From positions 7,418 to 71,417 of the forward strand of contig DENL01000003.1 of the NCBI GenBank assembly GCA_002359655.1: a DNA stretch of 64,000 nt, in the 5' to 3' direction. The notes under the pieces are model-generated. The model was not told the origin of the DNA and did no database searches. It saw nothing but the letters and a program-made list of their open reading frames with translations. Position numbers and translations under genes: made by a program. This document shows, one piece after another, positions 32,348-57,872 of this stretch; position 1 is the first letter of the stretch; each line of letters starts with the position of its first letter. This DNA comes from Rickettsiales bacterium UBA2645. GTDB taxonomy: Bacteria; Pseudomonadota; Alphaproteobacteria; Rickettsiales; UBA1997.

Positions 32348-33238
32348 TTACTTTTGATCAGTAATTTTATTTTCCATACAGCTCGATATATCCGCAGAGA
32401 TTTTTAGTAATAAATCCGCATAGCCAGAATTTTGTCCAATCAGATCTAGGCTAACAAATTTAATTTTATAATTCTGCGCTAGTTTTTGTGCGGTGTTTTT
32501 TTTGTCCCATTTTTCGCCTAAAACGCATTTGATTTTTCCTTGTTTAGCTAAAGCATCAATTTTTCTTAAGTCTTTGATGCTGAGCTCTTGATCGTGATTT
32601 GAAAAAATAGTTTTTAGCGGTTTCAAACCAAAATAATTTTCAAAATATTGATATCCATCGTGAAAGAAAAGATAGTTTGAAGCTTTACTTTGAAAGAGTT
32701 GCGACTTGATAGTTTTTTTAGTTAAGAAGATTTCTTTTTTAAATTTCTGCAGATTTCTTTGATATGTTGAAGAATTTTTTTGATCAATTTCTGCAATTTT
32801 TTGCATCACAAATTCAGCAATTTTTATAGCATTTTCTGGATCAAGCCAAATATGTGGATCAATTTTTTTTGGATTTTTTTTGTTTTGTAAAAGCTTTAAA
32901 TCTTTTATCTTTATTAGCTCAAAGCTTTGTGGTTTTTTATTTTGACTTGCAACCAACTTAGAAAAATTCTTTTCCAAATCTTCGCTAACATAAAAAATTA
33001 AATCAGCTTCACTTACCGCTCGAGCATCTTGTTTTTTAAGGAAATAATCATGCTCTGATAAAGAAGGATTAACCACTAAAATATTGTTGGTTTGACTTTG
33101 AGTAATTGCAGAAATTATTTGATAAATTGGGTTTATCGATACTACAATCAGTGGTTTTCTTTGACTAAAATCCTGCGAGAAAGCAGTTTTAGTAACTAAC
33201 AAAAGCAGTAAAAAAGCTTTAAGAAAAATTTTCGTCAC
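32348..33238 (-). CDS. znuA: Zinc/manganese ABC transporter substrate-binding protein (ZnuA/TroA family)
   Basis: Signal-like VTKIFLKAFLLLLLVTKTAFS from GTG 33238, then ..SLSEHDY...DPHIWLDP..FHDGYQYF.. family motifs. The longer track ORF is an antisense shadow of znuC. Confidence 0.8.
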   Translation of the reverse strand: MTKIFLKAFLLLLLVTKTAFSQDFSQRKPLIVVSINPIYQIISAITQSQTNNILVVNPSLSEHDYFLKKQDARAVSEADLIFYVSEDLEKNFSKLVASQNKKPQSFELIKIKDLKLLQNKKNPKKIDPHIWLDPENAIKIAEFVMQKIAEIDQKNSSTYQRNLQKFKKEIFLTKKTIKSQLFQSKASNYLFFHDGYQYFENYFGLKPLKTIFSNHDQELSIKDLRKIDALAKQGKIKCVLGEKWDKKNTAQKLAQNYKIKFVSLDLIGQNSGYADLLLKISADISSCMENKITDQK

Positions 33239-52130: not shown

Positions 52131-53783
52131 TTAACTTTCATAACTTGAGTACATGTAAGGAGTCACCGAATCAAACTCCGCCGCGCAAGAATCAACTCTT
52201 TTGTAAGATGGATTAACACCAAGATCACAGCGCAATTGACGAACCTCTTTTTCTGTCAATCCACTTAATTTTGCCAAACGCTTATCAGAAAAACCCATGC
52301 GTTTTAGATTGAAAAAATCTTGGGCATTTTTTGGCAAGCCTTCTTTTTTAACTTTAGTTTCAACATCCAAAGCGCCTTTAATTTGTTCTAAAAACCATTT
52401 ATCATATTTTGTGATTGAGGCTACTTCCTGAACTGACATGCCTTCACGCAAAGCTTGTGCAATCAGCAATAATCTGTTTGGAGCTTGAATTTTTAATTTT
52501 TCAGTAATGATTTTGATACGCTGTTCTGGATCTTCCGAAGCAATCGTAACATCATCCATGCCGCTTAAATTTGATTCCATTGAGCGCAAAGCTTTTTGAA
52601 AACTTTCAATAAATGAGCGACCAATTCCCATAACTTCGCCAACTGATTTCATCGAACTAGAAAGCGCGGTTTCAGAACCTTTGAATTTTTCGAAAGTAAA
52701 TCGCGGAATTTTAGTAATAACGTAATCGATAGTTGGTTCAAACGAAGCCGGAGTCACACCGCCAGTGATGTCATTTCTGATTTCATCAAGCGTGTAACCA
52801 ATTGCCAATTTTGCTGCAACTTTAGCAATTGGAAAACCAGTAGCTTTCGAGGCCAGAGCCGAAGATCTTGAAACTCTAGGGTTCATCTCAATAACTACCA
52901 AACTGCCATCTTTTGGATTAACCGCGAATTGCACATTTGATCCGCCAGTTTCAACACCAATTTCACGCAATACGGCAATTGAAGCATTGCGCATTTGCTG
53001 ATATTCTTTGTCAGTTAAAGTTAGAGCTGGCGCAACTGTGATTGAATCTCCAGTATGCACGCCCATCGGATCAACATTTTCGATTGAGCAAATAATAATT
53101 GTGTTGTCGTTTTTGTCGCGCACCACTTCCATCTCATATTCTTTCCAGCCAATGATTGACTCGTCGATTAGCACTTCGTTGGTTGGTGAGATTGTTAAAC
53201 CATATTCAACAATTTGGCGATATTCTTCCGCCGTATAAGCCACACCGCCACCAGCGCCACCCATTGTAAATGAAGGACGAATGATTGCCGGCAAACCAAT
53301 TTTTGACAAAGCCGCCATGGCATCTTCCAAGGTTTTTACGATAGCGTTTTTCGGAGTTTTAAGTCCGATTTTATTCATGGCTTGTTGAAAAAGTGCGCGA
53401 TCTTCAGCTTTGTGAATTGCCTCAATTGAAGCGCCGATCAACTCAACATTATATTTTTCAAGCACACCATTTTTTGCTAAAGCGATCGCACAGTTCAAAG
53501 CGGTTTGTCCGCCAACAGTTGGCAGAATTGCGTCGGGACGTTCTTTGGCGATGATGCGTTCAACAATATCAGGATTGATTGGTTCGATGTAAGTGCGATC
53601 AGCCAGATTAGGATCAGTCATGATCGTGGCTGGATTGGAGTTGATCAGAATAACTTTGTAACCTTCTTCTTTCAAAGCTTTGCAAGCTTGCGTGCCAGAA
53701 TAATCAAACTCACAAGCTTGGCCGATAACAATTGGCCCAGCCCCGATAATCAGGACTGATTTAATGTCTGTTCTTTTTGGCAT
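52131..53783 (-). CDS. carB: Carbamoyl-phosphate synthase large subunit, N-terminal half only (carboxyphosphate and oligomerisation domains)
   Basis: Collinear with E. coli CarB residues 1 to about 553 ([38 protein letters not shown] ... YKRVD.CAAEF......YMYS.YE) and then stops. Total 550 aa against about 1070 aa for normal CarB. Confidence 0.9.
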
Positions 53784-53883
53784 GGAAGGAGGAAATGAAA
53801 TGAAAACTAGCGAAAAAATTTCCGCTAATTAAAAAGCGCGCCTTGCAAAATGTCAACGCAGCGGAATTAAAAAAATTAATAAA

Positions 53884-54417
53884 ATGCAGAAAAAATCAAA
53901 ACCAAAACCAACCTATCGCAAGCGCACTTTAAGCCGACTTATTGCCATTCAAATTTTTTACCAATTTGAGTTTTACGAAAAAAAAATTCCTCTCGCAGAA
54001 GTCAAAAATAATGTCATCGATAATTATGTTCTCGAGCAAGAAGAAACTGTTAGCTCTTATCGCAAAAAAATTGATCTCAATCTTTTAGAAACTTTGCTTG
54101 CTGGCATCAATCTTGGAGTCGAAGAAATTGATCACGATATTTTTGGCCTACTGAAAAGTGGTTGGGATTTAGAAAAACTGCCAGACGTGATGCTATATAT
54201 TCTGCGCCTTGGCGCTTTCGAATTGAAATTTATGCACGACGTTCCGCTGAAAGTTGTTTTGGACGAATATGTCGATATTTCCGCCAGTTTTTTTGAAACA
54301 AAAAAAGTTACCTTCTTAAACGCAACGCTAGAAAATTTAGCCAAACATTATCGCGCTGCAGAATTTGAAAAAGTAAAGAGTCGATCCAATCACTCCCCCC
54401 TTGAGGGGAGAAAATAG
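53884..54417 (+). CDS. nusB: Transcription antitermination factor NusB (C-terminal 10 aa and stop supplied by repeat copy C)
   Basis: RLIAIQIFYQFEF... and ..ILRLGAFEL......P.KVVLDEYV.I...F: NusB fold. The tail RSNHSPLEGRK* is identical to the first residues of the valS insert. Confidence 0.85.
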   Translation: MQKKSKPKPTYRKRTLSRLIAIQIFYQFEFYEKKIPLAEVKNNVIDNYVLEQEETVSSYRKKIDLNLLETLLAGINLGVEEIDHDIFGLLKSGWDLEKLPDVMLYILRLGAFELKFMHDVPLKVVLDEYVDISASFFETKKVTFLNATLENLAKHYRAAEFEKVKSRSNHSPLEGRK

Positions 54418-54527
54418 CCTAAACGGCTATTTTCGGCTTTTAAGATACTCGAGGGTTTTGTAATAAACCCCTCCTCGAATCGCTGCGCTCTTCGATCCTC
54501 CCTCAGGGGGAGGATAATTAGATCGAG
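54380..54527. repeat. RPE-like modular palindromic element, copy C (nusB 3' end and nusB-rimM spacer)
   Basis: tcgatccaatcactccccccttgaggggag + hairpin aaaatagcc-taaac-ggctatttt + ...cccctcctcgaatcgctgcgctcttcgatcctccctcagggggaggataattagatcgag. Its reverse complement matches 57564 to about 57685. Confidence 0.85.
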
Positions 54528-54560
54528 CATATTATTACAAATTAGAAAACAGGATAAAAA

Positions 54561-55121
54561 ATGTCTAAAAAAATTCTTATCGCTAAAGTTATTTCTGCCT
54601 TTGGAATTAAAGGCGAAGTCAAAATTGTTGCTTATTGCCAAGATATTTTACAAATCGAAAAATATCCGCTTTTCGATGCCAAAGGCAATTTAGTAAAAAT
54701 CAAAATCAGCAATAAAAACAAAACAATAGTTGGCAAAAGTGGCTCGAATGATCCGATTCTGATTGTAAAAATTTCAGGAGTTGAAGAACGCAATCGTGCT
54801 GAAGAAATTCGCGGCGCTGAATTTTTTGTCAGTCGTGAGAATTTCAAAGAAACCAAAAAAGATGAATTTTATTATGTTGATCTAATCGGCCTAAAAGTGA
54901 TTAACGAAACGAAGAAAGAAATTGGCCAAGTTTTGAATGTGCAAGATTTTGGCGCTGGCGGAATGTTAGAAATCAAATTCAATAAAGAATTTTTAAAAAG
55001 TAAGGCAGGCAAAGATTTTACAGAAATCGAAAATCTACCCTTCACCGGCAAAATCTTTCCTGAAGTAAATCTTGAAGAAGGATTTATCAGGATTGATTTG
55101 CCGGAGGTCATTAAAAAATAA
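54561..55121 (+). CDS. rimM: 16S rRNA processing protein RimM
   Basis: ILIAKVISAFGIKGEVKI...F.., ..EFYYVDLIGL.V.......G.V..V.DFGAG..LEI: RimM and PRC-barrel pattern. Confidence 0.88.
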   Translation: MSKKILIAKVISAFGIKGEVKIVAYCQDILQIEKYPLFDAKGNLVKIKISNKNKTIVGKSGSNDPILIVKISGVEERNRAEEIRGAEFFVSRENFKETKKDEFYYVDLIGLKVINETKKEIGQVLNVQDFGAGGMLEIKFNKEFLKSKAGKDFTEIENLPFTGKIFPEVNLEEGFIRIDLPEVIKK

Positions 55122-55186
55122 AAGAATAATGGTACGTAAAGTCTCAATTTTGTATTTTTTTTGAGAATTTTATAATATCTACACTC

Positions 55187-56686
55187 CTATAATTGTGCTG
55201 CTTCTATGTTTTCTTCTTCTATGTTGTTCCGTAGAATATATCCACGGGCCATTCGAACAAGGCTAGAAGGCTTATAGTTTTGAGGAGCAAGATATTCAGC
55301 AGCCCCAATTCCAGCTACTAGTGCAAGAAAACCTCCAATTGCAATTCCAGAAATCGCTCCATCATTTGAAGGATTATCCTTATAAAATGCGTTATTATTC
55401 TCATACACACTAATCACGCTACTTGGTTCATTGGTAGGCTTTCCATAGTCTGGGTTATAAATCTCAGGACTTGGAAAAGCGCTAGGTTTAGATGTCGGAT
55501 TTCCAGAAGGAAAAGAAGTTGGGTAGGGATTAGGTTGGCTAGTTGGAGTTGCGCTTGGCTGAGAAGTTGGTTGACCAGTTGGTCTTAGCGAATATCTGAT
55601 TGGAGAATTTGTTGGAATAGATGTCGGCCTTAAAGTTGGGAAAAAAGATATTGTTGGAGTCACAGTTGGGCCAGTTGGACTTAAAGTAGGATCAACAGAT
55701 GGATACTGAGATGGGTTTATAGTAGGAAAATCAGATGGATTACTAGTTGGGAAGTTTGATGGACTTTGGGTTGGCGCAGTTGGAACTAGAGTTGGATTTT
55801 GAGATGGATTGGAAGATGGATTGCTAGTTGGAAAATTTGAAGGGTTTGCGGTTGAAGGCTGTGATGTTGGACTTTCTGTTGAAGCGGAGGTTGGAAATCT
55901 TGTTCCTCTTCCACCCTGAGCAAAAGCCGAGCTCACCACAAAACTCATTCCAAGAAACAACTTACTCAAGCCAGCATTTGTTATTGAGAGTATGCCATTT
56001 GTTAGTTCACTTACAGAAGTGTTAGCATAAATACTTTTTGCAGAACCTTTAATTCTGCTTTTGGTGTATTCTATTTCTTCTAAAAGTCTTTTTTCGCCCT
56101 CTTTACTTTCTAAAATATACCAACTTATTTCAGTTTCTTGATTATCGGTTAGGTCTTCTCTGTTTAAATATTCTTGAACAAGAGAGTTCTTTTCTAAACC
56201 CTTTAAGCTAGACCAATATTCTTTTGCTTCTTTTTTGTTGGGTGATTTTTCTTGTAAGAAACTTTTGAAGAATTCTGGGAACTTAACTTCAGTGGTTTTT
56301 TCATCTCTAAAATTTCTATCAAATCCTATTGGTTGTTCTGATTCTCTTGGAAGGGTTAGATAATCTTTATATTCAAGAAGAATTTCAACTTTATCTTCAA
56401 TTCTGGTGTTGTTCCAAGTTTCTTCTACGAATGAGATTTTTGCTTTGTTTATTTCTTGGTTATCTTCTAAATTTATGTGACTAATTCTCTTGGTGATTCC
56501 TACTAAATTTCCCTCTTCAATTTGTCTGGAAATTATCTCAGCAGCTTCTTTGTCATCTTCTTCACTGGTTTGAAATGGTCTTTTAGAGTTGTTCACTAAA
56601 AATGCGGCGAACCTATCTGTGAAAGATCCTGCTAGAGGGTTTGTTTCTATTAACTTATTTATTGGGAAAGACAGATCTGGTTTCAT
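55187..56686 (-). CDS. Hypothetical membrane protein with a Pro/Ser/Thr-rich low-complexity domain of about 170 aa
   Basis: 499 aa. An acidic/lysine-rich N-domain is followed by an internal signal-like hydrophobic segment (GLSKLFLGMSFVVSSAFAQGG). Then come degenerate P-T-S/N-P-S repeats (aa about 258-430; nt about 55400-55915), a TM (AISGIAIGGFLALVAGIGAA) and a short tail. I recognise no family. Confidence 0.6.
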   Translation of the reverse strand: MKPDLSFPINKLIETNPLAGSFTDRFAAFLVNNSKRPFQTSEEDDKEAAEIISRQIEEGNLVGITKRISHINLEDNQEINKAKISFVEETWNNTRIEDKVEILLEYKDYLTLPRESEQPIGFDRNFRDEKTTEVKFPEFFKSFLQEKSPNKKEAKEYWSSLKGLEKNSLVQEYLNREDLTDNQETEISWYILESKEGEKRLLEEIEYTKSRIKGSAKSIYANTSVSELTNGILSITNAGLSKLFLGMSFVVSSAFAQGGRGTRFPTSASTESPTSQPSTANPSNFPTSNPSSNPSQNPTLVPTAPTQSPSNFPTSNPSDFPTINPSQYPSVDPTLSPTGPTVTPTISFFPTLRPTSIPTNSPIRYSLRPTGQPTSQPSATPTSQPNPYPTSFPSGNPTSKPSAFPSPEIYNPDYGKPTNEPSSVISVYENNNAFYKDNPSNDGAISGIAIGGFLALVAGIGAAEYLAPQNYKPSSLVRMARGYILRNNIEEENIEAAQL

Positions 56687-56730
56687 AAGATTTTTCTATT
56701 AAAATTATAAGATAATTAAATTAAAAATTT

Positions 56731-57396
56731 TTAAAATCTGTAAGAGTAGCCAACTTTTACTACATCTAGTCGAGTTTGATATCTCGCGCTGAGATTAAGA
56801 TAAGAGTTTATAATTTTTGTCTTTGCTGAGAAATTCTGTGTATTGAATTCAAGATTGACAGAGCTTGTTTTGTCACAATCAATTTTTATCCCCGCGCCAT
56901 AAAACCAACTACCCCCAATTCCATTTTTTATACCTGTCACTTTTCCGTCTAGGTCAGAGTAGTCTTTGGTACGATAAGATATGTAGGCATATCCACCAGT
57001 GGCATAAACTGAAAATTTATCCGTAAAATCATATCCAATGTCAGACTTTATACCGTAACGATTTTTGATTTGTAGTCTTTGCGAGTCGATATCAATAGTA
57101 TTGTTACTATATCCGTTAACTTTAACATTATTCTGCTCTAGTAAAACTCCCGGAGAAATGAACAAACCACCAAAATTTATAGCATAGTTATAATGCAAAC
57201 CCGCTCCATAACCACTATTTGAATGATGGGGGGTATTACTAGCTTCGTTTTTGTTATTATCATTAGTATACTTCTCAACAAACTTTGCTTTTGAATTTAA
57301 AAGATCAATACCAATATAAGACCCTTCAGTCTTAGCCAAAGCAGAATTTTGAATTGCAAAAAAAGAAAGTGCCGCGATCAGGAAAGCTTTTTTCAT
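56731..57396 (-). CDS. Small outer-membrane beta-barrel protein (OmpA-like/opacity-porin family)
   Basis: Signal peptide MKKAFLIAALSFFAIQNSALA, alternating amphipathic strands, aromatic girdle residues, and a C-terminal ..VGYSYRF ending in Phe. Confidence 0.75.
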   Translation of the reverse strand: MKKAFLIAALSFFAIQNSALAKTEGSYIGIDLLNSKAKFVEKYTNDNNKNEASNTPHHSNSGYGAGLHYNYAINFGGLFISPGVLLEQNNVKVNGYSNNTIDIDSQRLQIKNRYGIKSDIGYDFTDKFSVYATGGYAYISYRTKDYSDLDGKVTGIKNGIGGSWFYGAGIKIDCDKTSSVNLEFNTQNFSAKTKIINSYLNLSARYQTRLDVVKVGYSYRF

Positions 57397-57563
57397 GATA
57401 AGAATTTATTTTTGATTTTGTAGGGCGAGAAGTGGTTTTATTTCTTTAGTCTAGTCGCCGCAAAAAAGATTATCTTATTTTTTTTTGCAAGAAATTTTTA
57501 CTGCGGAATTTTTGAGAAATGACGAGGGAGTTTTGCATAGCCTGCATATGAAAAATAAGAAAG

Positions 57564-57746
57564 CTCGATCTAATCATCCTCCCCCTGAGGGAGGATCGAA
57601 GAGCGCAGCGATTCGAGGAGGGGTTTATTACAAAAGCCTCGAGTACCTTAAAGGACGAAAATAGCCGTTTAGGCTATTTTCTCCCCTCACCGACTCAACC
57701 GAAGGTTTCGTCGACTCTCCCTCAAGGGGAGAGTGATTAGATCTAG
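57564..57746. repeat. RPE-like modular palindromic element, copy D (intergenic, composite L+M+R)
   Basis: ctcgatctaatcatcctccccctgagggaggatcgaagagcgcagcgattcgaggaggggt...gaaaatagccgtttaggctattttctcccctcaccgactcaaccgaaggtttcgtcgactctccctcaaggggagagtgattagatctag. Confidence 0.85.
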
Positions 57747-57872
57747 TTTTGTTATTTTTAATGAAAGACCTAGGGAGTTTTGCAGAATTTAAAAACTTTT
57801 AATCTCAATCAAGCTTTTGATTTAGGCCGTTTTTAAAAATCACCTTGCAAAAATACTACGAGACAACAATTT

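Follow-up and report, generated by a model that had tools for sequence, protein, structure and literature searches.

A palindromic repeat at the nusB-rimM junction of an uncultured freshwater Rickettsiales bacterium: probable displacement of a native gene end and a stop-associated hairpin module of the genus

Introduction

The nusB and rimM genes analyzed here lie side by side in the 1.76-Mb MAG (36% G+C) of an uncultured lake bacterium of the freshwater Rickettsiales. They fall within a stretch of 64,000 nt, hereafter the window, that corresponds to positions 7418-71417 of contig C17 of this host MAG (genome label G000); database records for related genomes carry the labels freshwater Rickettsiales or Alphaproteobacteria. 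In its present form, nusB occupies positions 53884-54417 on the plus strand and, according to the open reading frame (ORF) list, Pfam and an orthologue alignment, encodes a protein of 177 aa in which the Pfam NusB match spans residues 17-154 (E=7e-21). The rimM gene (54561-55121, plus strand; 186 aa) is intact, its ATG lies 143 nt 3′ of the present nusB stop, and an identical RimM protein is found in other metagenome assemblies. The end of nusB and most of the spacer are made up of a 148-nt repeat, copy C (54380-54527, plus strand), which comparison with other copies and in silico excision identify as an internally deleted element of nested palindromes, similar to MITEs and Rickettsia palindromic elements (RPE) and carrying at its center a hairpin module, M, that defines the M-type of the family. 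In this work we analyze how this element came to form the end of nusB, and how its hairpin is distributed across the genus.

Results

Copy C starts with GTCGATCCAATCA and ends with TAATTAGATCGAG, with boundaries that are precise to about ±1 nt. Reading along the plus strand, the element opens with the left terminal inverted repeat and a first arm hairpin, CTCCCC-CTTGA-GGGGAG (54380-54409), which ends at the junction of a 35-nt deletion. This is followed by the M hairpin module, GAAAATAGCC-TAAAC-GGCTATTTTC-GG (54410-54436), with the nusB TAG within its 5′ arm, and by a 3′ extension of the M unit (CTTTTAAGATACTCGAGGGTTTTGTAATAAA; 54437-54467) containing an ACTCGAG motif that recurs after stand-alone M units. 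The right arm (54468-54527) comprises CCCCTCC, the hairpins TCGAATCGCTGCGCTCTTCGA and TCCTCCCTCAGGGGGAGGA, and the terminal inverted repeat already given as the end of the element; this right-arm module is common to many genomes of the genus. Folded as RNA, the whole element has a predicted free energy of -63.9 kcal/mol (z = -5).

An initial sequence-only reading of this locus had described the element as a repeat, and its repeat nature is borne out both within the window and in the genome at large. The window holds a further copy, copy D (57564-57746, minus strand), a full-length, inverted M-type element of 183 nt that serves as reference for the undeleted form; it matches copy C with 96% identity over 127 nt (matched stretch 57563-57689), and a 30-nt core pattern yields two matches in the window against zero expected. 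BLAST searches with four window copies locate the family at approximately 33 loci of the host genome, with about ten copies bearing an M-type center like that of copy C. The consensus is a nested palindrome that comprises, in order, CTCGATCTAATCA as terminal inverted repeat, CTCTCCCCTTGAGGGAGAG as arm hairpin, the second hairpin TCGACGAAACCTTCGGTTGAGTCG, GTGAGGGG, an exchangeable center, CCCCTCC, the hairpin TCGAATCGCTGCGCTCTTCGA, a further hairpin TCCTCCCTCAAGGGGAGGA and TGATTAGATCGAG as the opposite terminal repeat. The terminal inverted repeats CTCGATCTAATCA...TGATTAGATCGAG are present in most copies and reach about 35 nt in some. Among the family copies, only copy C shows the 35-nt deletion, located between two TGAGGG repeats; at the corresponding point, AGAGTCGACGAAACCTTCGGTTGAGTCGGTGAGGG is present in copy D and in about ten further full copies. 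Several intergenic copies (for example C37:33067-33236 and window 57525-57784) show an additional layer of inverted repeats approximately 25 nt past the core (CGCATGAAAATTATTCTAAAACTCG...CGAGTTTTAGAATAATTTTTATGCG), which is missing from the copies within nusB, valS and sdhA.

Members of the family also lie in frame within valS, sdhA, ileS, mnmG and recJ. The resemblance noted in the initial reading between the nusB tail and the start of the valS insert is exact, the residues RSNHSPLEG being identical in both. In recJ (C31:31709-33985), two inverted arm modules (C31:32385-32448 and 32821-32884), which include the right-arm module described above, bracket an in-frame DUF559/Vsr-like endonuclease (residues 259-364; PF04480, 2e-41); this endonuclease between related arms is not a transposase. 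Five genes of the host genome, nusB and four others (an MFS transporter, RmlD, an HlyD-like protein and a DUF6680 protein), take their ends from repeat sequence, and in the RmlD and HlyD-like genes the TAA lies within the terminal repeat. Gene ends are a main tolerated landing zone of this repeat family.

According to the sequence-only reading, the last 10 codons of nusB and its stop belong to the element. The tail and the TAG do lie inside copy C, and the codon count requires correction: the element begins in codon 166, so that 11 full codons and one hybrid codon (residues 166-177, SRSNHSPLEGRK), together with the TAG at 54415-54417, are element sequence, and residues 1-165 are native. The same reading suggested that the native 3′ end had been displaced by an insertion, and the alignment of NusB orthologues from 15 species of the genus upholds this view. 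Similarity among the orthologues stops exactly at ...EFEKV(K), and none of the 15 carries the element tail. Removing exactly positions 54380-54527 in silico generates a 178-aa NusB that ends ...EFEKVK-TYYYKLENRIKNV and terminates at a TAA (54566-54568) overlapping the rimM ATG within ATGTCTAA. In three related species (G018, G004 and G002) nusB ends ...KNV, with its TAA inside ATGTCTAA at the rimM start. The excision joins a and ca into a Thr codon, and Thr is likewise seen in G003 (...EFEKVGTHKAK..., reading on) and in G017 (...EFAKVSTHKK, then stop). Since excision restores a tail ending in KNV that overlaps the rimM ATG, nothing appears to have been deleted, and a clean insertion into nusB that displaced its native 3′ end is supported by these comparisons. 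The insertion at this site is absent from all other sampled species, and the pre-insertion sequence is a reconstruction, because the NusB of the nearest species with an empty site is only 71% identical.

The remainder of the native tail, (T)YYYKLENRIKNV and its stop, can be traced at 54528-54568 on the plus strand from the excision reconstruction and from the ...KNV ends of the relatives. It is now untranslated, and it contains, by sequence reading, an AGGA Shine-Dalgarno-like motif (54551-54554, plus strand) located 6 nt before the rimM ATG, which itself lies 34 nt beyond the end of the element, as the initial reading had stated. The insertion thus changes the length of NusB from 178 to 177 aa and replaces the nusB-rimM overlap with a 143-nt spacer of strongly folding RNA. 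An undeleted copy inserted in the nusB phase would add approximately 39 residues, ending ...LL; with the deletion, nusB reads ...PLEGRK before its stop, and all three plus-strand frames are closed. The NusB tail is poorly conserved, and both the alignment of orthologues and the end of the Pfam match put it outside the NusB fold, which we infer to be the reason why its replacement was tolerated. No target-site duplication was found at copy C, where the Thr codon and the frame return only when exactly 148 nt are removed. A 1-nt (G) target duplication was considered and rejected, as the flanks would go out of frame. The converse proposition, of a native nusB tail as the source of the repeat, is rejected because the 15 orthologues lack the tail and about 30 copies lie elsewhere.

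At the left junction, between nusB and copy C, the MAG and three independent assemblies are identical, deletion and TAG included, and the right junction between copy C and rimM is seen in three assemblies. With both junctions present in the assemblies of three other samples, the insertion is real and apparently fixed; the DNA assemblies containing this organism derive from samples SRR5323351, SRR949847 and JGI 3300008962. One contig from JGI 3300008962 (Ga0104242_1001284; L021, 3200-3600) runs from nusB into the left part of copy C, with C-type SNPs, and from there into the right end of copy D and an OMP beta-barrel gene. A flip of the 3-kb segment that the inverted copies C and D enclose (54380-57746), with rimM, a gene for a PT-repeat protein and the OMP gene, would produce this layout, and an assembly chimera is equally possible; the identical stretch shared at the join measures only about 55 nt. 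In view of this contig, the right-hand neighbor of nusB may be polymorphic in the population, or the contig may be chimeric.

Unrelated palindromic sequences, assigned as repeats by form only, are found at the nusB 3′ end or in the nusB-rimM spacer of at least six other species (G003, G015, G011, G008, G009 and G012; loci L004, L007, L008, L009, L012 and L013). In G011 the nusB TAG lies in a repeat (TGTAGGGGACGGCCTTGTGC...) that is encountered again 100 nt later, before a 38-codon ORF remnant. A connection with RAYT was considered and rejected, since this ORF, although RAYT-like by eye, is only a 38-codon remnant and carries a different REP-like repeat. In G012, an element with inverted ends of approximately 45 nt (CCCCAATAACGCTTAAGG...) seems to give the last ~16 residues of NusB. 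G015 possesses two nusB loci (C12:4249-4731 and C54:8098-8598), one with an internal TAG followed by repeats and the other followed by a rimM that ends in an M hairpin; this duplicity of loci could reflect a paralogue, a mixture of strains in the MAG, or a copy in decay.

The M stem of copy C consists of 10 bp, formed by 54410-54419 and 54425-54434 around the loop TAAAC and closed by a G-C pair, with only three to four G-C pairs out of ten and a ΔG of about -12 to -13 kcal/mol. The hairpin proposed in the sequence-only reading is therefore real, but the T-rich run said to follow it reduces to a TTTT located within the stem, CGGC and a second TTTT. As a unit, M comprises a 30-nt hairpin, GAGAAAATAGCC-TAAAC-GGCTATTTTCGGC, and a tail of 10-35 nt, and it carries stop codons in two of three frames. 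An Rfam search in E-value mode with positions 54300-54620 returned only chance-level matches. A scan of positions 53600-55300 for promoter and terminator consensus sequences detected nothing on the plus strand between nusB and rimM, including no sigma-70-like site.

When the genus was searched with the 127-nt core, the right arm and the hairpin region were matched separately, and the composite of M and repeat was found in no other genome sampled. The M pattern GAAAANAGCCTAAACGGCTNTTTTCGG is present in 17 of the 41 genomes of the genus, at 1-10 copies each, and is missing from the 159 other genera of the order that were searched. Across the full set of GTDB species representatives, the exact pattern retrieves 28 stretches, all of them from lake MAGs; their labels are Rickettsiales or Alphaproteobacteria, two Rhizobium sp. 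and two Rickettsia typhi. M also forms the center of other palindromic elements in G042, G048 and G003, and 10 of the 12 copies in the host genome sit within M-type repeats. The most economical reading of this distribution is that the loop of the repeat took up an M unit, and that amplification of the repeat then multiplied both.

M units of the relatives are for the most part free-standing, and outside the repeats M is closely associated with the ends of genes. Considering ORFs of at least 100 aa, 17 of 24 stand-alone sites have a same-strand gene end between -60 and +12 nt from the hairpin start, 15 of these with the stop at -6 to +10 nt, and a single site (1/24) has an antisense gene end alone. 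Seven of the eight directionally informative M-type copies of the host are also in sense and downstream of a gene, and host M copies occur, too, between tightly spaced co-directional genes. Lone sense M units of the relatives lie on, or within 6 nt of, the stops of at least 11 unrelated genes, using four stop positions. The stop may be a TAG 4-6 nt 5′ of M (tig, pheT, ftsW/rodA, an aminotransferase and exbD, named by eye) or a TGA 3 nt 5′ of M; it may fall within M, read as AGA AAA TAG to give a terminal RK (HflC/K-like, arginase-family, AtpA and the RimM of G015); or M may be read as GAG AAA ATA GCC TAA to give a terminal EKIA (ornithine carbamoyltransferase). Relative to the empty orthologous sites of the host, M replaces or abuts a native Lys-rich end, for example turning ...HDTK into ...HDKRK and ...NRKK into ...NKRK before the stop, and adds a semi-conserved tail of 10-35 nt.

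Sequence variation within M is concentrated at one stem position. Pair 8-22 covaries (UA 11, CG 3, GC 2, UG 2, AU 1), and the rest of the module, loop included, is nearly invariant. At orthologous sites (argF, exbD, the aminotransferase and a gene ending ...GGMW), different species carry different compensated variants of the stem.

Not all M units abut protein-coding ends. In G011, an M unit occupies the atpA-atpG spacer, 30 nt before atpG. In G009 and G037 it lies within the permuted alpha_tmRNA gene, right after the acceptor piece (...CTCCACCGA; loci L058 1168-1659 and L062 1386-1808), in the segment that is removed at maturation, and with a stem variant that is also present in G011. The tmRNA gene of the host (C13:9803-10284) has a different intervening segment, without M. 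The notion that M marks RNA genes in the host was examined with ARAGORN and Rfam and discarded, as no tRNA or tmRNA lies beside the stand-alone copy at C13:32039 and the host tmRNA lacks M. M units are also seen just upstream of tRNA-Arg(CCT) in G036 (L069, about 1440-1650) and G045 (L037). The unit of G036 is flanked by a direct duplication, 28 nt long, of the 5′ end of the tRNA with its leader, and that of G045 by a shorter, imperfect duplication of about 17 nt; by their sequence, these duplications look like the footprint of an insertion that rebuilt the start of the tRNA.

Discussion

The account that we favor, and hold with good confidence as a whole, is that of a clean MITE insertion which exchanged the tail of NusB and brought along a captured M hairpin that is not a strong terminator. 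A non-autonomous mobile repeat of nested palindromes, with the behavior of RPE and MITEs, would have entered the Thr166 codon of nusB. The entry would have been clean and located 13 codons before a native stop that overlapped the start of rimM. Translation would now run 12 codons into the element and halt at the TAG in the 5′ arm of the M hairpin, in a frame set by the 35-nt internal deletion particular to copy C. The dispensable NusB tail was thereby exchanged, and the former tail persists as a spacer that still supplies the AGGA motif for rimM. The hairpin, or the element, would at most act as a leaky attenuator, a 3′-end stabilizer or a processing site, rather than as an efficient terminator, and M itself would be an independent, genus-specific module that was captured and amplified by the MITE of the host species.

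Compatible with this insertion history is the possibility, which we regard as tentative, that M and the element act on RNA in the manner of REP sequences. They might form a barrier to 3′ exonucleases, provide a site of endonuclease processing that affects the stability of the upstream cistron, or damp translation termination, with the stop placed in the stem. In E. coli, REP elements stabilize upstream mRNA and, when located within about 15 nt of the stop, lower expression. RNase R and PNPase have been found to act on REP-containing mRNAs (PMC12320835). Several features speak for a significance of the hairpin at the RNA level: the sense bias of M, the compensatory changes and the two U-G pairs at its sole variable stem position, and the fact that orthologous sites are kept by species whose stem variants differ. 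Its location within operons and, in tmRNA genes, at the 3′ end of the acceptor piece points in the same direction. On the other hand, 1-12 copies per genome is a low number, and an invariant loop and invariant flanks would be needless for a mere block to exonucleases. Moreover, M is missing from the orthologous sites of most species, the host included, and it is therefore not required by those genes. As an alternative to a role in RNA, the insertion mechanism may read the sense strand of Lys-rich gene ends.

A bolder proposal, to which we assign a rather low probability, sees in M an undescribed, genus-specific mobile gene-end cassette that homes to, or is kept only at, exact 3′ boundaries and acts as RNA punctuation. 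For proteins such a boundary would be the stop codon, for tmRNA the CCA end of its acceptor piece, and the punctuation would consist of a processing or 3′-end protection site, a bacterial counterpart of the tRNA punctuation of organelles. Capture of M in the loop of a palindromic MITE would then spread it, the nusB insertion being one instance of such spread. We found no description of a stop-hugging module of this kind, and M belongs to no Rfam family.

The suggestion of the sequence-only reading that the hairpin could terminate or attenuate transcription between nusB and rimM finds no support in that form, and we consider it improbable that the two genes are now split transcriptionally by efficient intrinsic termination or attenuation, be it at the hairpin or at the folded element as a whole. 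A stable stem, the presence of M in sense directly behind the stops of many genes of the genus, the orientation of the host M-type copies and the second TTTT that follows CGGC in the MITE form could all be taken as signs of such a function. Against this, the consensus scan was negative, and M departs from an intrinsic terminator in both composition and placement. Instead of a G+C-rich stem with an immediate U-tract, it has its UUUU base-paired, a G-C pair closing the stem beyond the U's and then CGGC; and instead of marking the ends of transcription units, it occurs in the atpA-atpG spacer and in permuted tmRNA genes, where it parts the two pieces. In Caulobacter, the permuted tmRNA pieces arise from one precursor, and a strong terminator in such a gene is unlikely, because the coding piece would be cut off. 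Furthermore, no promoter was detected for rimM or for the genes that lie approximately 20 nt 3′ of three other sense copies, and yet all of these genes are intact. From sequence evidence, M is probably not a strong transcription terminator, and we infer that transcription reads through from nusB into rimM. A REP-like role in RNA, or a purely selfish element, is more likely than a terminator. The strong sense orientation of M and its association with stops would also fit a true function at RNA 3′ ends, partial termination included, and the milder idea of M as possible punctuation is strengthened by its conservation, orientation and proximity to stop codons across the genus.

That the junction is an artefact of repeat-induced mis-joining is hardly credible: short-read contigs from three samples do break within the repeat, and in one contig copy C is followed by the flank of copy D, but both junctions recur among assemblies, and the flanks join into the ancestral frame, as those of a chimera would not.

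The nusB locus provides what appears to be an unusually clean, base-resolved case of a selfish palindromic repeat remodeling a gene end. Nothing would have been deleted in the process; the old tail was cut off, a new tail and stop were given, and the overlap of a ribosome-biogenesis pair was broken. In the relatives rimM is translationally coupled to nusB, and the coupling overlap is lost in the host. The stop-carrying M hairpin is of greater interest, as a separate module conserved across a genus of uncultured freshwater Rickettsiales. A function at RNA 3′ ends would make M a novel type of portable gene punctuation; should M be purely selfish, a mechanism is needed for its precise tropism for stop codons.

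Because repeats that rewrite 3′ ends have been documented, as in Coxiella, the nusB case belongs to a known phenomenon, of which it is a very clean further example. The classic example of coding palindromes is provided by the Rickettsia palindromic elements (Ogata et al. 2000 Science; 2002 Genome Res, PMC186582; as cited in PMC5896051). The copy-C family resembles them in being made of many palindromic repeats of approximately 100-200 bp in Rickettsiales, in lying in frame within essential genes (valS, sdhA, ileS, mnmG, recJ) as well as between genes, and in lacking an obvious target duplication. The likeness seen here is one of size, palindromy and placement. Unlike RPE, the family is modular, with arms and an exchangeable center, and its arms also flank the DUF559 endonuclease; furthermore, the nusB case is the replacement of a gene end with a stop provided by the element, and not an internal in-frame insert. 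With classical MITEs the family shares terminal inverted repeats; target-site duplication is lacking at copy C.

The closest parallel to the event at nusB comes from the QMITE1 and QMITE2 elements of Coxiella burnetii, where every functional gene affected has the MITE at its 3′ end and the encoded protein changes little in size (Wachter et al. 2018, PMC5896051). In the EnhC protein of the Dugway strain, the last 33 residues derive from QMITE2, and the QMITE stem has been discussed as a substrate of RNase III (PMC5896051). The nusB gene similarly carries a MITE at its 3′ end with little net change in protein size. It differs in that copy C resides in another organism and belongs to another sequence family, in that the pre-insertion frame can be reconstructed to the base, in that the stop stems from a separate hairpin module nested in the MITE, and in that the overlap with the next gene was destroyed.

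M can be compared with the REP sequences of gamma-proteobacteria, since it is likewise a palindrome of approximately 30 nt found at gene 3′ ends, also within operons, and could plausibly act on mRNA 3′ ends. In contrast to the high-copy REP, it is confined to one genus with only 1-12 copies per genome, and it lies strictly in sense, touching or overlapping the stop. A GTAG-type 5′ tetranucleotide and an associated RAYT transposase are further traits of REP. The Correia elements of Neisseria and the enterobacterial ERIC and YPAL MITEs carry terminators, promoters and RNase III sites. By analogy with them, copy C is a small palindromic mobile repeat that would be co-transcribed with its neighbors and could alter mRNA structure between cistrons, but, in the scan performed here, it differs from them in showing neither a promoter-like nor a terminator-like consensus. 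What takes nusB beyond these known cases is the base-exact pre-insertion frame, the lost overlap with the next gene, and the stop-hugging M module.
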